Source: Escherichia coli (GTDB lineage Bacteria; Pseudomonadota; Gammaproteobacteria; Enterobacterales; Enterobacteriaceae). From it: a DNA stretch of 64,000 nt. Position 1 is the first letter of the stretch; every line of letters starts with the position of its first letter. Below, piece after piece: positions 11,758 through 55,529 of this stretch. The stretch lies in the NCBI RefSeq assembly GCF_013315695.1, contig NZ_CP054353.1, one strand, 5' to 3'. Both the position numbers and the translations under genes were made by a program. Under the pieces are notes generated by a model. It was not told the DNA's origin and searched no databases. It was given only the letters and a program-made list of their open reading frames with translations.

Positions 11758-12115
11758 AGCTCCTCCTTAATGACAGGGTTGCGAAGCCCTGATTCTCTTC
11801 AGGGTGAATATTAAAGATAACACAAACATCGCGTAACGATTTGATAACAACCCAAATTGATAAAAGAGGAGAAACCTTGAGACAAAGCAAACAGCGGGGT
11901 CAGGGATCAGTGAGTAATGATCCAGAGGAGTTCGGCCCAGAAGAGCATCGACAGAGAAAATGCGCCCATCCAGGACCAATATTTCATATTTGTGTTGATC
12001 ATAGGCTACACCCTTAACGGTTATTACTTTGTGTTGAGATAACTCAACCTGTTATTGCTGCGGTGTATTAAAAGCCCTGTGATTCATTAAAAATGGGTAA
12101 TAAGAATGATGATAA

Positions 12116-26771: not shown

Positions 26772-26816
26772 ATGAAAGCAATTTTCGTACTGAAAGGTTG
26801 GTGGCGCACTTCCTGA
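26772..26816 (+). CDS. trpL: trp operon leader peptide
   Basis: 14-codon [17 protein letters not shown] with tandem Trp codons. Confidence 0.95.
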
Positions 26817-26857
26817 AACGGGCAGTGTATTCACCATGCGTAAAGCAATCAGATACC

Positions 26858-26887
26858 CAGCCCGCCTAATTAGCGGGCTTTTTTTTG
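26858..26887 (+). terminator. trp attenuator (3:4 terminator hairpin)
   Basis: cagcccgcctaattagcgggc followed by T8. Confidence 0.9.
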
Positions 26888-40100: not shown

Positions 40101-40330
40101 GAATCCTCCCGGGCGGGATAATGTTGTGAGTCAGATAAGGAGCAGGCTGAAGTCCGGAAGTTACAGGACAATGGCAGAAGGGAGACTACAGCCCGCAATT
40201 CGAAAAAGACCGCGCAGTTGCGCAGAGTGATTACTATGGGGTATTATTCGCCAGCTGAAATATTACTTCACGTTTTATTGTTTATTCCTTGCCGCCCGCG
40301 TCTCCCAGCGCGGGCTTTTTTTGTCCATAA

Positions 40331-40568
40331 GAAAGCCCCTCCGGAGAGGGGCTAAAGCCGCGTATCTGTATCATCATGCACATGGTGCCGGGTGCCTCCC
40401 GGTGAGTTCAGCCCGGTGCCACTAAACCCGCGTCATTCTCGTTTTGATAATCAGAGATTATACCGTCACCAGTCGCCCCTCCGCTCAGGGGGATTCACCA
40501 TGCGAAATTTTTTTAACAAATGCCCAGTCTGACAGGCAACTGTCAACTTACTGAATTGTGAGCAACAT
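40331..40568. repeat. hairpin-rich noncoding repeat unit, copy A
   Basis: Shares blocks aaagcccctccggagaggggct, catggtgccgggtgcctcccggtga, cccctccgc.cagggggattcaccatgc, ttttaacaaa, ctgaattgtgag with copy B. Confidence 0.7.
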
Positions 40569-40815
40569 AGCATTTAACGGGGAACCTGTTTTCTGCAGTA
40601 AAAAGGCCCACCGGAGCGGATGGGCCTGGAAGGATAGCGGTCATGTGATGCCGGTTTCCCGGTAACTCAGCACCGGTATCTGAGTCAACGTTTTCTCTAC
40701 TGGGTCATTTCCGATACGCCCTGCCTGCTGACAGGCTTTCATCACATCTGAAAATATAGCACCCTGACTGATACTGTAGTACCTAAGGTTCCAGAAACTG
40801 TGATGTATCCGGCAC

Positions 40816-41036
40816 AGAAAAGCCCCTCCGGAGAGGGGCTGGAGAGTGGCGCTATGTGCCATTGCATGGTGCCGGGTGCCTCCCGGTGAATTCAGTACCA
40901 GCACCTGAATCCGCGATTATCCCATATACCTACTCGCTGATTGCCCCTCCGCACAGGGGGATTCACCATGCCAGTTTCTTTTAACAAACTCCCCGCAAAC
41001 CAGACAACAGTCAACCGCCTGAATTGTGAGACATTT
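40816..41036. repeat. hairpin-rich noncoding repeat unit, copy B
   Basis: Degenerate direct repeat of copy A (~485 bp period); a third partial copy of the ccgg-hairpin block lies at ~40690..40740. Confidence 0.7.
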
Positions 41037-41074
41037 AAAAAAAGCCCGCAAAAGCGAGCCAGGGAAAATAAGTG

Positions 41075-41151
41075 TGGCGCGTTGTACTGGATTCGAACCA
41101 GTGACCGATTGCTTAGAAGGCAATTGCTCTGTCCGGCTGAGCTAACAACGC
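41075..41151 (-). tRNA. tRNA-Arg (anticodon UCU)
   Basis: Manual fold: acceptor GCGTTGT/ACAACGC, D-arm GCTC..GAGC, anticodon stem ATTGC/GCAAT with loop CTTCTAA, T-arm ACTGG TTCGAAT CCAGT, CCA end. Confidence 0.9.
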
Positions 41152-41164
41152 AGGATACAGATAA

Positions 41165-41241
41165 TGGACCGCCTTCGGGGACCCGAACTCCGCGCAACCA
41201 GCTTCGAAAGCTGGCGCTCTTTCCTGATGAGCTAATGGCGG
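41165..41241 (-). tRNA. tRNA-Arg-like (anticodon UCG), possibly degenerate
   Basis: Perfect anticodon stem CCAGC/GCTGG with loop TTTCGAA, but one mismatch each in acceptor and T stems and T-loop TTCGGGT lacks the conserved A58. Confidence 0.5.
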
Positions 41242-41248
41242 TATGTGA

Positions 41249-41324
41249 TGGTGGCCCTTGCTGGATTTGAACCAGCGACCTGGCGATTATGAGTCGCTCG
41301 CTCTCACCACTGAGCTAAAGGGCC
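41249..41324 (-). tRNA. tRNA-Ile2/Met type (anticodon CAU), ileX/ileZ-like
   Basis: GGCCCTTTAGCTCAGTGGTGAGAGCGAGCGACTCATAATCGCCAGGTCGCTGGTTCAAATCCAGCAAGGGCCACCA; near-identical to remembered E. coli tRNA-Ile2 (k2CAU). Confidence 0.85.
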
Positions 41325-45534: not shown

Positions 45535-45690
45535 TTACTCCTCAGGTTCGTAAGCTGTGAAGACAGCGACCTCCGTCTGGCCGGTTCGGAGTCGTACCTC
45601 GCAGAGGTCTTTCCTCGTTACCAGTGCCGTCACTATGACGGTTAAACAGATGACGATCAGGGCGATTAACATCGCCTTTTGCTGCTTCAT
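45535..45690 (-). CDS. hok: Hok/Gef-family type I toxin (HokD/RelF-like)
   Basis: MKQQKAMLIALIVICLTVIVTALVTRKDLCEVRLRTGQTEVAVFTAYEPEE, essentially the remembered HokD sequence; extended upstream frame (to 45747) corresponds to mok-like leader. Confidence 0.9.
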   Translation of the reverse strand: MKQQKAMLIALIVICLTVIVTALVTRKDLCEVRLRTGQTEVAVFTAYEPEE

Positions 45691-45927
45691 AGCCTGCTTC
45701 CCCTTGCCTTTCGGCACGTAAGAGGCTAACCTACATTTGTGAGACATAGATTGGGCCTCAGATTAATGTTAAGCGTCTTGCAGGACGCGAAATGTTAACT
45801 GGGGCTTTTCTCTATCTGCCTTTCAGTGTTCATGCCTGAGACAGATAGCCTCAAGCACCCGCAGCCATTCTACTTAACTCACGTCACCTCGCCAATATGA
45901 AATCAATCAGAAAGGTGATCCATAAAA

Positions 45928-49738: not shown

Positions 49739-50164
49739 TTAGTGCATCACCACAGCATTCCCTGCCGGGCCGCCGCGATTCATCTGGTCATACAAAACAA
49801 CCGCTGACGCAACAAAATCATCGACATCCTTCACCAGCCGATCCCTCCGTTCGACGATCTCACGGTAATATTCAGAACTGTGGCTGCGCATACGGGCCAC
49901 CAGCAAAGGCGGCATCGCCTTTTCGATCGCCGGTAACAGAGCCTGCATTTTTTCAACAGCATCAGGGGGGGCTTTCTCTACCCAGCGGAAAATTTTCTGG
50001 GTATTGCGAGCCAGGGCTTCCGGATGGCTGTCGTCATACAGTTCCGGGAACGTCATACCCAACTCAAAATAAGCCTGGGTTATTCCAGCTGCTGGAACTT
50101 TTTCGCCATCAGGACGCGCCCAGGCATTCATCGCCATGCGGATGTGTTCATGCTTGATTTTCAT
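49739..50164 (-). CDS. YdaT-like protein (cII-position gene)
   Basis: 141-aa ORF beginning MKIKHEHI…, as remembered for Rac YdaT. Confidence 0.65.
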   Translation of the reverse strand: MKIKHEHIRMAMNAWARPDGEKVPAAGITQAYFELGMTFPELYDDSHPEALARNTQKIFRWVEKAPPDAVEKMQALLPAIEKAMPPLLVARMRSHSSEYYREIVERRDRLVKDVDDFVASAVVLYDQMNRGGPAGNAVVMH

Positions 50165-50429
50165 GAATCAAGCTCCTAGAAAGTGGTTGTGTTAACGTTT
50201 TGGTATCTTCCAGCTCGGGCCAAATATTCATCCAATCAAAAGGCCTTAGTTGCTGACGTGTAACTTCACCATTACTGGCTCGCTCAATAAGGACACATAA
50301 CGATGCCCCTAACACTTGACCTTTACTCAATGCCTTTCTTAGATAACCGATGCTGGTACCACACTCGCATGCAAACATACGCTGTTCATCTGACGAAAGA
50401 GAATTGAGAAATATTCTTAATTCTTCCAT
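50148..50429 (-). CDS. Cro-like/YdaS-family HTH regulator
   Basis: 93-aa ORF with HTH (ECGTSIGYLRKALSKGQ) and YdaS-like C-terminus (QQLRPFDWMNIWPEL); divergent from repressor gene. Confidence 0.7.
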   Translation of the reverse strand: MEELRIFLNSLSSDEQRMFACECGTSIGYLRKALSKGQVLGASLCVLIERASNGEVTRQQLRPFDWMNIWPELEDTKTLTQPLSRSLIHENQA

Positions 50430-50456
50430 AGCTACTCCTTAGTAAACACAGCAAAG

Positions 50457-50493
50457 AATACCCACAGGTAAACAAAAGCCAATACCCACAGGT
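50457..50493. promoter_or_regulatory. right operator region (two aatacccacaggt sites within gtaaacaa/ttgtttac inverted repeat)
   Basis: Repeated 13-mers at 50457..50469 and 50481..50493 in the 100-bp divergent intergenic region. Confidence 0.6.
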
Positions 50494-50529
50494 TGTTTAC
50501 CTTGCGGTAATCGCATCTATTATTTACCT

Positions 50530-50949
50530 ATGGACAAATATGAATTTAGACGACAGCAACTCATCAAAATTCGTGATGAGAAATGCGATGGTAAAGCGGT
50601 TAACGTGGCCAGAAAGATCGGGCGCGAGCCTTCTTATGTATCAAGAATGTTGTACCCAGAGGGGAAAAAGGGAAAAAAACGGATCGCTGATGATATGGTG
50701 GAGATTATCGAAGAGTCCTTTGGGTTACCCCGGGGATGGATGGATGGTATCGTTTCATCATCAACGAACACAGCCTCCAGTTATGAAACAAGGGTTCTAA
50801 CGCCACGACAACGTATTTTTTTAGATCTCTTAGACGAACTGCCAGAAAGTGAAGCGGATAAATTATTAAAAACTCTTGAAGAGAAAAAACAGTATTACAA
50901 TATGATCTACGAAGAAATCCGTAAAAAGAAAGCACAAAACGCATCATAG
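50530..50949 (+). CDS. prophage repressor, RacR-like (HTH, no S24 peptidase domain)
   Basis: 139-aa ORF with HTH (AVNVARKIGREPSYVSRMLY); divergent from cro-like gene. Confidence 0.7.
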   Translation: MDKYEFRRQQLIKIRDEKCDGKAVNVARKIGREPSYVSRMLYPEGKKGKKRIADDMVEIIEESFGLPRGWMDGIVSSSTNTASSYETRVLTPRQRIFLDLLDELPESEADKLLKTLEEKKQYYNMIYEEIRKKKAQNAS

Positions 50950-50989
50950 CTCACCAAACAACTAGTCACCAGTTAAGACACCGCAAAAT

Positions 50990-51028
50990 TTACCCATGGG
51001 TATTTACTTTTTAAATACCTATGGGTAT
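50990..51028. promoter_or_regulatory. left operator-like palindromes (tacccatgggta, atacctatgggtat)
   Basis: Palindromes sharing the accca.(g)ggt core with the right operator, just upstream of the leftward early operon. Confidence 0.5.
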
Positions 51029-51213
51029 CCTTCTTTTCATACCAACCCACCCCGCCCCACAGAATGCAGGGCAATACTTCGAGTTACCAGGCAGTGGTCA
51101 GGGGTTAAGTAGCCAGCCCGAGGCGTAAGAACATGACGGCAGGGTTCAACTTTAATAACTATGCAGCAGGTTTTTGTTCCGCTACCCCGGCGTTAAGGGG
51201 AAATGAGGTCAGC

Positions 51214-51366
51214 ATGGATACTATCGATCTTGGCAACAGCGAATCTCTGGTATGTGGCGTGTTCCCCAACCAGGACGGTACGTTCACCGCGATGACGTAT
51301 ACCAGAAGCAAAACGTTTAAAACTGAAGCTGGCGCGCGTCGCTGGTTAACCAGAAACACTGACTGA
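51214..51366 (+). CDS. hypothetical small early protein (YdaF-like by position)
   Basis: 50-aa ORF MDTIDLGNSESLVCGVFPNQDGTFTAMTYTRSKTFKTEAGARRWLTRNTD with RBS; alternative start at 51133. Confidence 0.45.
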   Translation: MDTIDLGNSESLVCGVFPNQDGTFTAMTYTRSKTFKTEAGARRWLTRNTD

Positions 51367-51779
51367 TGAGGTTGACGATGGAATTTAAAGATTTACCAGT
51401 ACCATTCCAGGAAATGGCATCGAATGTGGTTCGCTCTCAACTGGCGACTCTTGACCTGAGTACCGTAGAAAAGGAAACCATCGATACTATATCCGGTAAC
51501 GTGCGTCGTGCCTTTATAGGTCTGTATGAAGAGAAGCGCCTATTCGGCGGACAGAATTCGCCTGAAAACAAGAATCAAGCAAATGATGAGAAGCTGAAAC
51601 ACATTATCGCCTTACTTTTGGAAGACGCAAAACGTCTACAGCAACTGGAACCAAATGCAGGCACAGAGGCCCGCATTTGGATTGCCATGAAATCACTCAA
51701 ATGTGAAAGCAGTGATTATTTCAAAACAACAATTAAAACTACTCAACTTTCGGGAGAGCTACTGAAGAAATTGCCATAA
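51366..51779 (+). CDS. hypothetical early protein
   Basis: 137-aa ORF whose start overlaps the previous stop. Confidence 0.5.
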   Translation: MRLTMEFKDLPVPFQEMASNVVRSQLATLDLSTVEKETIDTISGNVRRAFIGLYEEKRLFGGQNSPENKNQANDEKLKHIIALLLEDAKRLQQLEPNAGTEARIWIAMKSLKCESSDYFKTTIKTTQLSGELLKKLP

Positions 51780-52056
51780 GAGCATGGTCTTTCTCTTGTT
51801 CTGCAAGATGAGCATTAATACCTGGTATGGTTTTTTCAAATTTATCTATCTGTTGAATAACAACTTCGCGGTATACGTTTGTTTTTGTACCACCAAGCGC
51901 AGCCGTTAATGCAGAAAGCATATTTAGTATCATATCAGTGCGATATGAAAGAATCCTGATAGCTTCATCTTGTTCTTCAATAATAGATTGCAGGGCCTCA
52001 ATTTGCTTTTTATCCATTTCACCCTCCTGAGGGTTGGTAATTAAGGAGTTCTCCAC
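51739..52056 (-). CDS. hypothetical protein, opposite orientation within early-left operon
   Basis: 105-aa ORF convergent with orf137; predicted coiled-coil-like composition. Confidence 0.4.
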   Translation of the reverse strand: MENSLITNPQEGEMDKKQIEALQSIIEEQDEAIRILSYRTDMILNMLSALTAALGGTKTNVYREVVIQQIDKFEKTIPGINAHLAEQEKDHALMAISSVALPKVE

Positions 52057-52588
52057 GGGTCAGGTGGAGTGCGTGCGCCGGACACGGGTGAGCATCCGGC
52101 ACTGACAGCTTACTGAAAGGATATGTCCCTGAAAAGTCAGGGCATAACGCGAAAGCGCACGGCGAAATTGGTCTCTCTGTACGGTGTCGTTAAATTTAGT
52201 TCGACCGTGCGCTTCCGGTTGTGGCACTCCGCGAAATGGCGCGGCGGTAAGTATGGCTGGGGTTTCCTCCATTGCTCCAGAAAATGCACCGGGTTGTCAG
52301 GTTGACCATACGCTTAAGTGACAACCCCGCTACAACGCCCTCTGTTATCAATTTTCTGGTGACATTTGGCGGTATCAGTTTTACTCCGTGACTGCTCTGC
52401 CGCCCTTTTTAAAGTGAATTTTGTGATGCGGTGAATGCGGCTATGCGCACGCGGAACAGTTAAAGCAGTAAGGCGGTATTTTACGGGCGTAACGAGCATC
52501 AACTAACCCGGCGTTAATTGTTAACTGGTTAACGTCACCTGGAGGCACCAGGCACTGCATCACAAAATTCATTGTTGAGGACGCGATA

Positions 52589-52777
52589 ATGGAAACGTTA
52601 TTACCAAACGTTAATACGTCTGAAGGTTGTTTTGATATTGGTGTTCTGCTCAGTAACCGGGAGTTTACTGAAGATGCCATTAATATGAGGAAATATGAGC
52701 CTTATCTGCTCAATGATAATTCCATACTTTCCCGAATTGCTCTTCTTGAACTTGGTATTTTCGGAGAACGTCAATGA
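52589..52777 (+). CDS. hypothetical small protein
   Basis: 62-aa ORF with RBS; stop overlaps next start (ATGA). Confidence 0.45.
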   Translation: METLLPNVNTSEGCFDIGVLLSNREFTEDAINMRKYEPYLLNDNSILSRIALLELGIFGERQ

Positions 52778-52962
52778 CTTCAGCATTTGCACTGATGATG
52801 ACGGTTTTTCTTATAACGGGTGAATCACAGAATGTGATTACCGGAATTTATGCAAGTAAAGAATCCTGCCTCCAGGCAAGAGACGAGCAAAAAATTTCTG
52901 GTGAATGCCTCCCGCTAAAAAAAGTATCGCTGTACCTGAATAACGAAACACCGGCTGGATAA
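52774..52962 (+). CDS. hypothetical small protein with N-terminal hydrophobic segment
   Basis: 62-aa ORF MTSAFALMMTVFLITGESQ…, translationally coupled to previous ORF. Confidence 0.45.
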   Translation: MTSAFALMMTVFLITGESQNVITGIYASKESCLQARDEQKISGECLPLKKVSLYLNNETPAG

Positions 52963-53057
52963 CCCTCCAGCCATATTAACACCATACCAACGGATTAAAA
53001 ATGCCAGCAATGGCAGGGATTCGTTCACCCTGAAATCTGTAATGAGGTTAAAACAAA

Positions 53058-55529
53058 ATGAGTAAGGTCTTTATTTGCGCTGCTATTCCTGATGAACAGG
53101 CCATAAAAGAAGATAGCGCTGTTGCGGTGGCCACTGCCATTGAAGCTGGTGATGAGCGTCGCGCACGCGCAAAATTTCATTGGCAATTTCTGGAGCAATT
53201 CCCTGCAGCTCAGGACTGCGCTTATAAATTTATTGTCTGTGAGGATAAACCCGGCATACCCCGCCCTGCCCTCGATTCCTGGGATGCTGAATATATGCAG
53301 GAAAACCGCTGGGATGAGGAGTCTGCTTCCTTTGTCCCGGTTGAGACTGAATCCGATCCGATGAACGTCACTTTTGACAAGCTGGCCCCTGAAGTACAGA
53401 ACGCTGTCATGGTTAAGTTCGACACATGTGAAAACATCACCGTTGATATGGTTATTAGCGCACAGGAATTGTTGCAGGAAGACATGGCAACATTCGACGG
53501 ACATATCGTTGAAGCGTTGATGAAAATGCCAGAAGTTAACGCCATGTATCCGGAGCTTAAGCTGCATGCCATCGGGTGGGTTAAGCATAAATGTAAGCCT
53601 GGTGCCAAATGGCCCGAAATTCAGGCAGAGATGCGCATCTGGAAAAAACGTCGCGAAGGTGAACGTAAGGAAACCGGAAAATACACGTCTGTTATTGATC
53701 TCGCCCGCGCCAGAACCAATCAACAGCACAGTGAAAATTCAACAGGAAAAATCAGCCCGGTCATTGCTGCCATTCATCGCGAATACAAGCAGACATGGAA
53801 AACACTGGATGACGAACTGGCCTACGCTCTCTGGCCTGGTGATGTGGATGCCGGAAACATTGACGGCAGCATCCATCGCTGGGCAAAAAATGAAGTTATC
53901 GACAACGACCGCGAAGACTGGAAGCGTATCTCGGCATCAATGCGCAAACAGCCTGATGCCCTTCGCTACGACCGCCAAACTATTTTTGGCCTTGTCCGTG
54001 AGCGTCCGATCGACATTCACAAAGATCCCGTAGCACTGAACAAATATATCTGCGAATACCTGACGACAAAGGGCGTGTTTGAGAATGAAGAAACAGACCT
54101 GGGCACTGTTGATGTTCTCCAGTCATCAGAAACACAAACTGATGCAGTGGAAACTGAGGTATCTGATATCCCAAAAAATGAAACCGCGCCGGAAGCTGAA
54201 CCATCTGTAGAGCGTGAGGGGCCGTTCTATTTCCTCTTCGCAGATAAGGACGGAGAAAAATGCGGTCGCGCAAACAAACTTTCTGGTCTGGATAAGGCAC
54301 TGGCTGCTGGCGCCACTGAAATCACAAAAGAAGAATATTTTGCCCGAAAAAATGGCACATACACGGGCTTACCGCAAAATGTAGATACCGCTGAAGATTC
54401 AGAACAACCAGAGCCGATAAAAGTTACCGCTGACGAAGTAAACAAAATTATGCAGGCAGCCAATATCAGCCAGCCTGACGCCGATAAGTTGCTTGCTGCA
54501 TCACGTGGTGAATTTGTTGAAGGGATTAGTGACCCGAATGATCCGAAATGGGTTAAGGGGATCCAGACCCGCGATTCTGTGAACCAGAACCAGCATGAAT
54601 CGGAACGGAACTACCAAAAAGCGGAACAAAACAGCCCAAATGCGTTACAAAACGAGCCAGAAACGAAACAGCCTGAACCAGTGGCGCAACAGGAAGTGGA
54701 AAAAGTCTGCACCGCCTGCGGTCAGACCGGCGGCGGCAACTGCCCTGATTGTGGCGCGGTGATGGGCGACGCAACATACCAGGAAACATTCGATGAAGAG
54801 TATCAGGTTGAAGTTCAGGAAGATGATCCGGAGGAAATGGAAGGCGCTGAACATCCACACAAGGAGAACACTGGCGGCAATCAGCATCACGATAGCGATA
54901 ATGAAACTGGCGAGACGGCAGATCGCTCAATTAAGGTGAACGGTCATCACGAAATCACATCCACCAGCAGGACGTGTGACCATCTAATGATCGACCTTGA
55001 AACCATGGGAAAAAATCCTGATGCCCCGATCATCTCAATAGGTGCAATATTTTTCGATCCGCAAACCGGAGATATGGGACCGGAATTTAGTAAGACTATC
55101 GATCTGGAAACTGCTGGCGGAGTCATTGATCGGGACACCATTAAATGGTGGCTTAAGCAATCACGCGAAGCGCAATCTGCCATTATGACCGATGAAATCC
55201 CGTTAGATGATGCACTGTTACAATTGCGGGAATTTATCGACGAAAACTCCGGTGAATTTTTTGTTCAGGTTTGGGGAAATGGAGCCAACTTCGACAACAC
55301 GATTTTGCGCCGTTCATACGAACGGCAGGGGATCCCCTGCCCGTGGCGTTACTACAACGATCGCGATGTACGCACAATCGTTGAGCTGGGGAAAGCCATA
55401 GACTTCGATGCCAGAACGGCTATTCCATTCGAAGGTGAGCGCCATAATGCACTTGATGACGCCCGTTACCAGGCAAAATACGTTTCAGTTATCTGGCAAA
55501 AACTGATCCCGAGTCAGGCTGATTTTTAA
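53058..55529 (+). CDS. exodeoxyribonuclease VIII-like protein with C-terminal DnaQ-type (DEDDh) 3'-5' exonuclease domain
   Basis: 823-aa ORF; acidic linker; C-terminal HLMIDLETMG…WGNGANFDNTIL…HNALDDARYQA exonuclease motifs. Confidence 0.7.
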   Translation: MSKVFICAAIPDEQAIKEDSAVAVATAIEAGDERRARAKFHWQFLEQFPAAQDCAYKFIVCEDKPGIPRPALDSWDAEYMQENRWDEESASFVPVETESDPMNVTFDKLAPEVQNAVMVKFDTCENITVDMVISAQELLQEDMATFDGHIVEALMKMPEVNAMYPELKLHAIGWVKHKCKPGAKWPEIQAEMRIWKKRREGERKETGKYTSVIDLARARTNQQHSENSTGKISPVIAAIHREYKQTWKTLDDELAYALWPGDVDAGNIDGSIHRWAKNEVIDNDREDWKRISASMRKQPDALRYDRQTIFGLVRERPIDIHKDPVALNKYICEYLTTKGVFENEETDLGTVDVLQSSETQTDAVETEVSDIPKNETAPEAEPSVEREGPFYFLFADKDGEKCGRANKLSGLDKALAAGATEITKEEYFARKNGTYTGLPQNVDTAEDSEQPEPIKVTADEVNKIMQAANISQPDADKLLAASRGEFVEGISDPNDPKWVKGIQTRDSVNQNQHESERNYQKAEQNSPNALQNEPETKQPEPVAQQEVEKVCTACGQTGGGNCPDCGAVMGDATYQETFDEEYQVEVQEDDPEEMEGAEHPHKENTGGNQHHDSDNETGETADRSIKVNGHHEITSTSRTCDHLMIDLETMGKNPDAPIISIGAIFFDPQTGDMGPEFSKTIDLETAGGVIDRDTIKWWLKQSREAQSAIMTDEIPLDDALLQLREFIDENSGEFFVQVWGNGANFDNTILRRSYERQGIPCPWRYYNDRDVRTIVELGKAIDFDARTAIPFEGERHNALDDARYQAKYVSVIWQKLIPSQADF

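Follow-up and report, generated by a model that had tools for sequence, protein, structure and literature searches.

The interval 52057–52588 of a 64,000-nucleotide stretch of Escherichia coli DNA (assembly GCF_013315695.1, contig NZ_CP054353.1; hereafter the window) is almost certainly the untranslated middle, ~560 nt long, of a dicBF operon of the Qin type carried by a lambdoid prophage, serving as an RNA-processing hub for DicF, a small RNA (sRNA), and for the downstream gene dicB. DicF and the dicBF operon have been under study since 1989–90, and what we describe is a new copy of a known system; what remains modestly interesting is a structured RNA domain inside it. The original prediction, made from the letters of the sequence alone, had singled out the interval as a GC-rich segment with several hairpins and few open reading frames (ORFs), and this description is accurate. 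The GC content of 52057–52353 is 0.549 and that of the entire 532-bp interval 0.519, compared with 0.405 for the upstream genes (51366–52017) and 0.398 for dicB and the DUF1482 gene behind it (52589–52962). The ORFs of the interval, on either strand, are 25–70 amino acids (aa) long, and the longest complete one (70 aa) equals the expectation from shuffled sequences (mean 70.4 aa, s.d. 20.9, with 45% of 2000 shuffles matching or exceeding it), so that the ORFs are at chance level. Folding is another matter: the minimum free energy has a z score of −2.9 for 52040–52415 and −4.1 for 52400–52600, and no shuffle folds equally well in either case. The segment is better labelled as DicF with its processing leader than as a candidate small-protein region.

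The non-coding RNA that had been considered plausible here is DicF itself. An Rfam scan, one of the checks that the original prediction had proposed, places the full-length RF00039 model (positions 1–52 of 52) on the plus strand at 52354–52405 with 77 bits (gathering threshold (GA) 48; E = 1.8e-16), a hit confirmed when the whole window was scanned. At E ≤ 1 over 50000–54000, the interval has no further Rfam hit apart from a sub-threshold one to STnc100, discussed below. The 53-nt K-12 form corresponds to 52353–52405, and the RNA has the expected parts in order: the 5' seed UUUCUGGUGACAUUU, the terminator stem at 52368–52404 and a UUUUU run at 52406–52410. It differs from K-12 DicF by one base, an A for G at 52364, and the same A is present in 10 of 99 distinct loci. 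DicF lies upstream of dicB on the same strand, with the dicB start codon 183 nt downstream. The general idea of an early-left interval devoted to host killing and regulatory RNA holds in broad terms, given that DicF and DicB are both cell-division inhibitors, but the specific genes that had been suggested (kil, cIII, racC and ralR) are not here. Antisense RNAs, which had also been suggested, were not found either: candidate antisense or immunity RNAs of the C4, IsrK, sok or OOP type have no Rfam match over 50000–54000 at E ≤ 1, and a consensus scan detected no minus-strand promoter or terminator in the interval.

The alternative that the interval encodes at least one real small protein, of the kil/cIII/ral type, has as its best candidate a basic 60-aa ORF on the plus strand at 52123–52305. 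This ORF is present as predicted, with a plausible ribosome-binding site (RBS; AAGGA, three bases 5' of the ATG), and early-left operons often carry small proteins. For another of the proposed checks, small-ORF conservation, we collected loci containing the exact DicF word from IMG/VR, which yielded 99 distinct 600-bp homologs, aligned them and projected seven window ORFs onto the alignment. The start codon of the 60-aa ORF is ATG in 9/99 loci and ATT in 59/99 (K-12 also has ATT); its length is divisible by three in 43 loci and differs by frameshifting amounts in 56, and the ORF is intact in only five. A 70-aa ORF on the minus strand is intact in three loci and the remaining five ORFs in four or five, and wherever an ORF is intact the locus hardly differs from the window. 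For none of the seven ORFs do more than 5/99 loci preserve start, frame and stop together, the interval ORFs have no Pfam family match, and the 60-aa ORF runs through the covarying helices of the conserved RNA described below. On this comparative evidence 52123–52305 is a chance ORF and not a gene, and a small protein encoded anywhere in the interval is highly improbable.

The pattern of conservation across the 99 loci is patchy. Near-invariant blocks (52145–52160, 52205–52250, 52295–52460 and 52505–52625) alternate with hypervariable, indel-rich patches (52160–52190, 52265–52295 and 52460–52505), and the latter fall on the loops of predicted long hairpins. Such a pattern fits a set of RNA stems and loops as well as the published processing of DicF by RNase III and by RNase E. 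In K-12, all DicF derives from the operon promoter, which gives transcripts of 1146 nt (to dicF) and 1608 nt (through ydfD) (PMC10448788, PMC9438474). A 190-nt species owes its 5' end to RNase III and builds up as a stable RNA (PMC10448788); the 53-nt DicF has an RNase E-generated 5' end and stops at its own Rho-independent terminator (PMC10448788, PMC9438474), and the 3' end of a 72-nt DicF arises when RNase III cleaves read-through RNA (PMC9438474). The published 190-, 72- and 53-nt species map cleanly onto duplexes that we find in the window, as set out below.

The 5' leader of the DicF precursor (52030–52217, plus strand) shares homology with the K-12 DNA that begins immediately past ydfC. 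Three short GC hairpins (52051–52069, 52077–52100 and 52127–52142) lie in it, together with an imperfect long duplex of 52153–52165 with 52201–52214, extendable to 52148/52223. The arms of this duplex are the most conserved blocks and the loop (52160–52190) is hypervariable; the pairs are kept in 94–97% of 63 distinct rows, with few compensatory changes. The duplex is likely the RNase III substrate that makes the 5' end of the 190-nt species, the cut being placed from the length of that RNA: 190 nt counted back from the DicF 3' end leads to a point only a few nt from where helix P1 of the structured domain begins, and to the 3' edge of the duplex. Further downstream, an 8-bp hairpin formed by UGUUAUCA and UGGUGACA (52343–52364, plus strand) has an AU-rich loop that holds the DicF 5' end at 52353/52354, as positioned by alignment to the annotated K-12 dicF, and we infer that this loop is the RNase E processing site. 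In the predicted fold the hairpin would pair the first 11–12 nt of DicF in the precursor, and the 5' seed may thereby be sequestered before processing. Two deletion variants among the homologous loci (L033, 4473–4621, and L110, 6104–6251) have lost an arm of the RNase III duplex and the 5' strand of helix P1 by recombination between two CGCGAAA repeats, with DicF kept.

On the other side of DicF, the spacer between dicF and dicB (52411–52575, plus strand; the z score of −4.1 above covers this region) is dominated by a long-range stem of ~21 bp between 52411–52433 and 52553–52575, which starts directly behind the terminator U-run and stops 13 nt short of the dicB start codon. Within this stem lie conserved inner hairpins and the hypervariable apex at 52460–52505, and its pairs are kept in 98–100% of 52 distinct rows. 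This stem is likely the RNase III site that generates the 3' end of the 72-nt DicF, which would end within its 5' arm, and that releases the dicB messenger RNA (mRNA). Both RNase III duplexes rest on conservation and the literature. The spacer is also a sub-threshold relative, in architecture, of the sRNA STnc100 (RF02076): it shares GGUGAAU plus a hairpin, and UCACCnGGAGGCACCnGGCAC, with two genuine STnc100 copies in the window, with compensatory differences. Membership of the family is rejected at 31.1 bits against a GA of 47; the hairpin sequences and the apex differ, and the spacer is the 5' untranslated region of dicB whereas STnc100 is a stand-alone sRNA beside transfer RNA (tRNA) genes. 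The two genuine copies are full-length (165 and 136 bits) and adjoin three tRNA genes at 40323–41324 on the minus strand, a typical lambdoid late-region tRNA cluster. In phage P1, a spacer much like that between dicF and dicB (GCGGUGAAUGCGGCUAAGCGCACGCGG ... CACCGGGAAGCACCCGGCAC; L003, 3842–3961) precedes tciA, a gene annotated as possibly inhibiting cell division.

Taken together, these features suggest the following course of events, in which the nucleases, RNA sizes and targets come from the K-12 literature and the exact cleavage positions are our own placements. Transcription would start at an early-left promoter downstream of the repressor-like gene at 50530–50949 and proceed through the DUF1391 gene and a 137-aa gene into the interval. 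RNase III cleavage at the duplex around 52153–52214 would leave an RNA of ~190 nt consisting of a folded 5' domain (52218–52336) plus DicF, from which an RNase E cut at 52353, in the loop of the small hairpin, would release the 53-nt DicF ending at its own terminator (U-run 52406–52410). Polymerases that read through would make the long-range stem 52411–52433/52553–52575, and RNase III cleavage there would yield the 72-nt DicF and a freed dicB–DUF1482 mRNA. Together with Hfq, DicF would then target ftsZ and metabolic mRNAs in trans, and division would be blocked by DicB via MinC, as in K-12, where repression of ftsZ by DicF with Hfq is established (PMC10448788, PMC9438474, PMC5069750). Through DicF and DicB a prophage becomes toxic to its host or protects it.

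The comparison with the Qin prophage of K-12 is close. The intergenic DNA is 88% identical over the stretch that runs from ~52030 up to where dicB starts, and the order of elements is the same: a repressor pair, DUF1391/ydfA, the leader, DicF, the spacer, dicB, a ydfD-like gene, the exonuclease and the integrase (the annotated K-12 order being dicC, dicA, ydfA, ydfB, ydfC, dicF, dicB, ydfD, ydfE, intQ). Differences are found in the immunity and promoter region, in the P3 hairpin of the leader domain and in the apex of the spacer, and ydfB/ydfC are replaced here by the 137-aa forward gene and a reverse-oriented 92-aa gene. In K-12, ydfE, insD7 and intQ are pseudogenes, whereas the exonuclease frame of the window is uninterrupted and a genome identical to the window annotates an excisionase and the start of an integrase after it. 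Several points weigh against a dicBF operon that works as in K-12. A consensus scan located no promoter for the operon, and the promoter region differs from K-12 dicBp; both RNase III duplexes are too invariant for real covariation support; the RNase III cut reported as 813/814 (PMC10448788) is not convertible to window coordinates; and the reverse-oriented gene, inside the operon and just upstream, could disturb transcription reaching DicF.

The leader and DicF are common in the species. Homologs of 52057–52353 turn up in 4418 of the 5426 complete E. coli genomes, and where they are present they occupy a median of two places per genome. The arrangement of the window with the reverse gene (51700–53000) is by comparison rare, with only 64 of the 5426 genomes carrying it versus more than 4400 with the DicF leader. 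Among the matches listed, no annotated feature lies beneath the homologs of 52057–52353, and nothing is annotated between the reverse gene and dicB in the records listed; some phage records place what are probably spurious ORFs over the structured RNA. The RefSeq table of an identical genome, E. coli CE10 (L001, 3818–4390), has no dicF non-coding RNA, whereas the K-12 table does; the CE10 locus tags skip from RS07520 to RS07510, and an unlisted feature may exist there.

The part of the precursor upstream of DicF contains the structured domain mentioned above ('element B'), which spans ~120 nt at 52218–52336 on the plus strand and forms the 5' part of the 190-nt RNA. It consists of four helices and a pseudoknot: P1 (52218–52224 with 52330–52336), P2 (52229–52233 with 52240–52244), the variable hairpin P3 (52257–52262 with 52275–52280), P4 with an invariant 19-nt loop (52291–52299 with 52319–52327), and a pseudoknot between GUAUGG (52251–52256) and CCAUAC (52306–52311). 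The helices contain G.U pairs, and the structure for this reason fits the plus strand only. A covariance model that we built for the domain scores 155 bits at 52201–52351. In 28 diverse sequences, 93.6% of the cells are paired, compared with 30–53% when the partners are slid, and 11 pairs change on both sides, a number that 0/500 shuffles reach. For 84 distinct sequences the paired fraction is 95.2% and 12 of 26 pairs have both-side changes, in an alignment that was fitted to the covariance model and so leans towards the structure. Over both sets, slid partners give 30–58%. The variable pseudoknot pair provides a simple illustration, being U-A in 58 sequences, C-G in 15, U.G in seven and C.A in none. 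The domain is thus well supported as a conserved RNA, and it appears to be undescribed as a module in its own right: no Rfam 15 family matches it in the window (E ≤ 1 over 50000–54000) or in four other contexts, and the literature on dicF-like RNA, the P1 ban operon and the core sequence, as far as it was covered here, does not describe it as such. The 64-kb window contains one copy only, with no second, putR-like copy, and elsewhere in the window there is no site complementary to the invariant 19-nt loop that could be a trans target.

The domain also occurs without DicF. In BLAST searches of phage genomes, 52218–52344 matches the DicF-less phages cdtI, Stx2c phages, Salmonella F1055 and P1, and scanning IMG/VR, as well as one genome of each species, for the pattern brought in versions from Citrobacter, Serratia symbiotica, Trabulsiella, Izhakiella and E. 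albertii (the one-genome-per-species scan gave 20 loci, seven of them chance hits within unrelated genes). The domain has an intrinsic terminator behind it in each of the 101 distinct downstream contexts, ~40–136 nt from the P4 loop, with same-strand genes beyond. At Qin-type loci this terminator is DicF's own; in other lineages it is a different hairpin and there is no DicF seed; DicF looks like a seed inserted between domain and terminator in one lineage. In cdtI, cI is followed by a terminator, by a PL-like promoter matching 11 of 12 consensus positions and, after 280 nt, by the domain; a terminator and a long-range stem then lead up to the first early-left gene, and the early-left region has no N-like gene. 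No protein gene is common to all domain contexts. Such an arrangement suggests that the domain is a leader element acting in cis with the help of host factors, its function being linked to the terminator. Minus-strand hypothetical proteins are annotated across the plus-strand domain and terminator in cdtI (orf40; L125, 2545–3000) and Salmonella F1055 (F1055_0036; L127, 2284–2856), and both are probably spurious gene calls. Four of the loci, L224, L225 (E. albertii), L132 and L238, encode DicF-like RNAs with the same upstream domain and spacer and other seed or terminator hairpins, e.g. UUUCUGGUGAUUCGGCGGAAACGGAUAUCCGCC, which are possible DicF variants with other targets.

What the domain does can be read in several ways. 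The reading to which we give the largest share, while still considering it doubtful, is that the GC-rich part upstream of DicF is a stable structured spacer with no function of its own, which would shield untranslated RNA from Rho and nucleases and supply the RNase III and RNase E sites. A long untranslated stretch of operon needs protection from Rho, the 190-nt species accumulates as a stable RNA in K-12 (PMC10448788), and the RNase III cut maps beside the start of the domain. Against this, a mere spacer should have no need of 19 loop nucleotides that stay the same from genus to genus, and the domain, with its invariant loops and covarying pseudoknot, is retained where there is no DicF seed at all, as in the P1 ban leader, cdtI, Stx2c phages, Salmonella F1055, Serratia and Izhakiella.

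Somewhat more tentatively, the domain may represent a distinct, undescribed class of phage leader RNA that controls whether the host RNA polymerase stops at or passes the following terminator, as a protein-independent antiterminator or an attenuator, with the DicF seed grafted in later. Such a class, equally tentative in its reach, would extend over Qin-type prophages, P1/P7-type plasmid phages and lambdoid phages of Escherichia, Salmonella, Citrobacter, Serratia, Trabulsiella and Izhakiella. An autonomous covarying module that also precedes terminators in P1 and other DicF-less phages would then be a candidate for a second kind of RNA-only transcription control in phages without N, and in the dicBF operon it would offer a handle on how output is split between the sRNA and dicB.

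One model is the put system of phage HK022, in which nascent RNA suppresses termination in cis via the zinc-binding domain of the RNA polymerase beta' subunit. That the domain is a processive antiterminator of this sort, modifying RNA polymerase so that it passes the DicF terminator and Rho sites into dicB and the recombination and integration genes, is in our estimate unlikely. The placement is that of put elements, in an early-operon leader with a promoter upstream and terminators with same-strand genes downstream: in P1 the domain starts ~12 nt past the annotated −10 element of Pban, much as putL follows PL, and in cdtI it follows the strong PL-like promoter and, separated by a terminator, precedes the first early-left gene, no N-like gene being present. 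Since the contexts have no protein gene in common, any partner must be a host factor, and the invariant loops and the pseudoknot point to specific recognition. Against this, the domain has no sequence or structural relation to putL and putR, each phage has one copy compared with the two put sites of HK022, and in K-12 the transcript ending at the dicF terminator is prominent (PMC10448788), which does not suggest efficient read-through.

Slightly less probable again is an attenuator in which the domain, either in the manner of a riboswitch or by binding a protein or RNA, acts as the sensor and fixes the number of polymerases that stop at the terminator, so that output is shared between the downstream genes and a short RNA, which in Qin-type phages is DicF. 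A pseudoknotted domain, a variable linker and an intrinsic terminator do constitute the architecture of a transcriptional riboswitch or attenuator, and a Shine–Dalgarno/anti-Shine–Dalgarno pair with an AUG in the terminators of Serratia, Trabulsiella, Izhakiella and Salmonella F1055 may be a sign of coupling to translation. Yet inspection of the linker and terminator sequences by eye reveals no antiterminator pairing common to all lineages, the arms of the P1 terminator find nothing to pair with in the domain, known riboswitch families give no match and no ligand or partner can be named. As judged from sequence comparison, then, each of the two readings that invoke active control of the polymerase would receive a small share of the probability and a passive scaffold a larger but still minor one, the remainder going to functions not named here. 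At the four loci just mentioned (L127, Salmonella F1055; L234, Serratia; L236, Trabulsiella; L239, Izhakiella), a long terminator hairpin encloses CUUCC...GGAGG and an AUG, and looks like a sequestered RBS of a tiny ORF within the terminator.

Three known leaders help to place the conserved domain. The leader of the phage P1 ban operon, where the match coincides with an annotated 'dicF-like region' (NC_005856, 68791–68892), has the same four-helix pseudoknotted domain at 100 bits, with compensatory changes in helices P1 and P4 and in the pseudoknot, an intrinsic terminator after it and the STnc100-like spacer further down the operon. Having both the domain and the spacer-like element, the ban operon holds both non-coding modules of the dicBF centre. 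It differs in lacking the DicF seed and hairpin, in the short distance from promoter to domain given above, and in its cargo, which comprises tRNAs, tciABC and the ban helicase instead of dicB. With HK022 putL and putR the domain shares no more than position and logic: these too are nascent, structured RNAs of an early-operon leader, without an N-type protein and ahead of terminators. The put RNAs, however, are ~70 nt with two stem-loops and a triplex, compared with ~120 nt, four helices and a pseudoknot here. A direct relationship was considered and rejected, as blastn-short against the HK022 immunity region returned only chance words (GCGCGGCGG and ACCATGCG, in another order) and the covariance model has no match in that region at E ≤ 1. 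The lambda N leader, finally, has a cis-acting RNA element (nutL) and then an RNase III hairpin just before the RBS of the first gene. The same order of element, likely RNase III stem and RBS is seen here and in cdtI, but there is no boxA/boxB and no N gene here, and a terminator lies between the element and the RNase III stem.

The genes around the interval complete the operon. Downstream, the small gene pair that had been noted ahead of the exonuclease is dicB and a YdfD-like DUF1482 gene. The dicB unit (52576–52777, plus strand) comprises a GAGGA RBS and the 62-aa gene at 52589–52777, which matches Pfam DicB (PF05358) over its full length with 125.5 bits and is annotated as dicB by RefSeq in identical genomes. 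The DUF1482 gene (52774–52962, plus strand; PF07358, 54 bits; phrog_1092) overlaps the dicB stop and occupies the place of K-12 ydfD. It is followed by an 823-aa Rv2179c-like exonuclease (Pfam), and in identical E. coli genomes RefSeq annotates an excisionase and an integrase beyond that. Upstream are the DUF1391 gene (ydfA-like, by Pfam) and the 137-aa forward gene. The reverse-oriented neighbour on the minus strand had been predicted as a 105-aa ORF at 51739–52056 with a GTG start; its start is most likely the ATG at 52017, giving a 92-aa protein (51739–52017), because RefSeq lists 92 aa in identical genomes (WP_000358768.1) and phrog_18692 matches end to end (92/92, E = 8e-63). This gene, which had been called moron-like, is AT-rich and stands in place of K-12 ydfB/ydfC, and the block of K-12 homology begins at ~52030, at its RBS. 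It has no Pfam match and no match to the defence-system models of PADLOC, and a consensus scan detected no promoter for it.

A few further features of the window were noted. Just after the repressor-like gene at 50530–50949, a perfect-looking 16-bp hairpin followed by a T-run (50991–51027, plus strand) is probably the terminator of that gene, ahead of the early-left promoter; the layout of cdtI matches, with a terminator after the repressor and before the early-left promoter. A sok antitoxin RNA (RF01794, 120 bits) at 45685–45860 on the minus strand points to a hok/sok-type toxin–antitoxin locus inside the prophage. Towards the other end of the window, a Trp operon leader (26793–26886, plus strand; 89 bits) and STnc180 (11863–12075, minus strand; 183 bits) identify the left part as host chromosome near trp.

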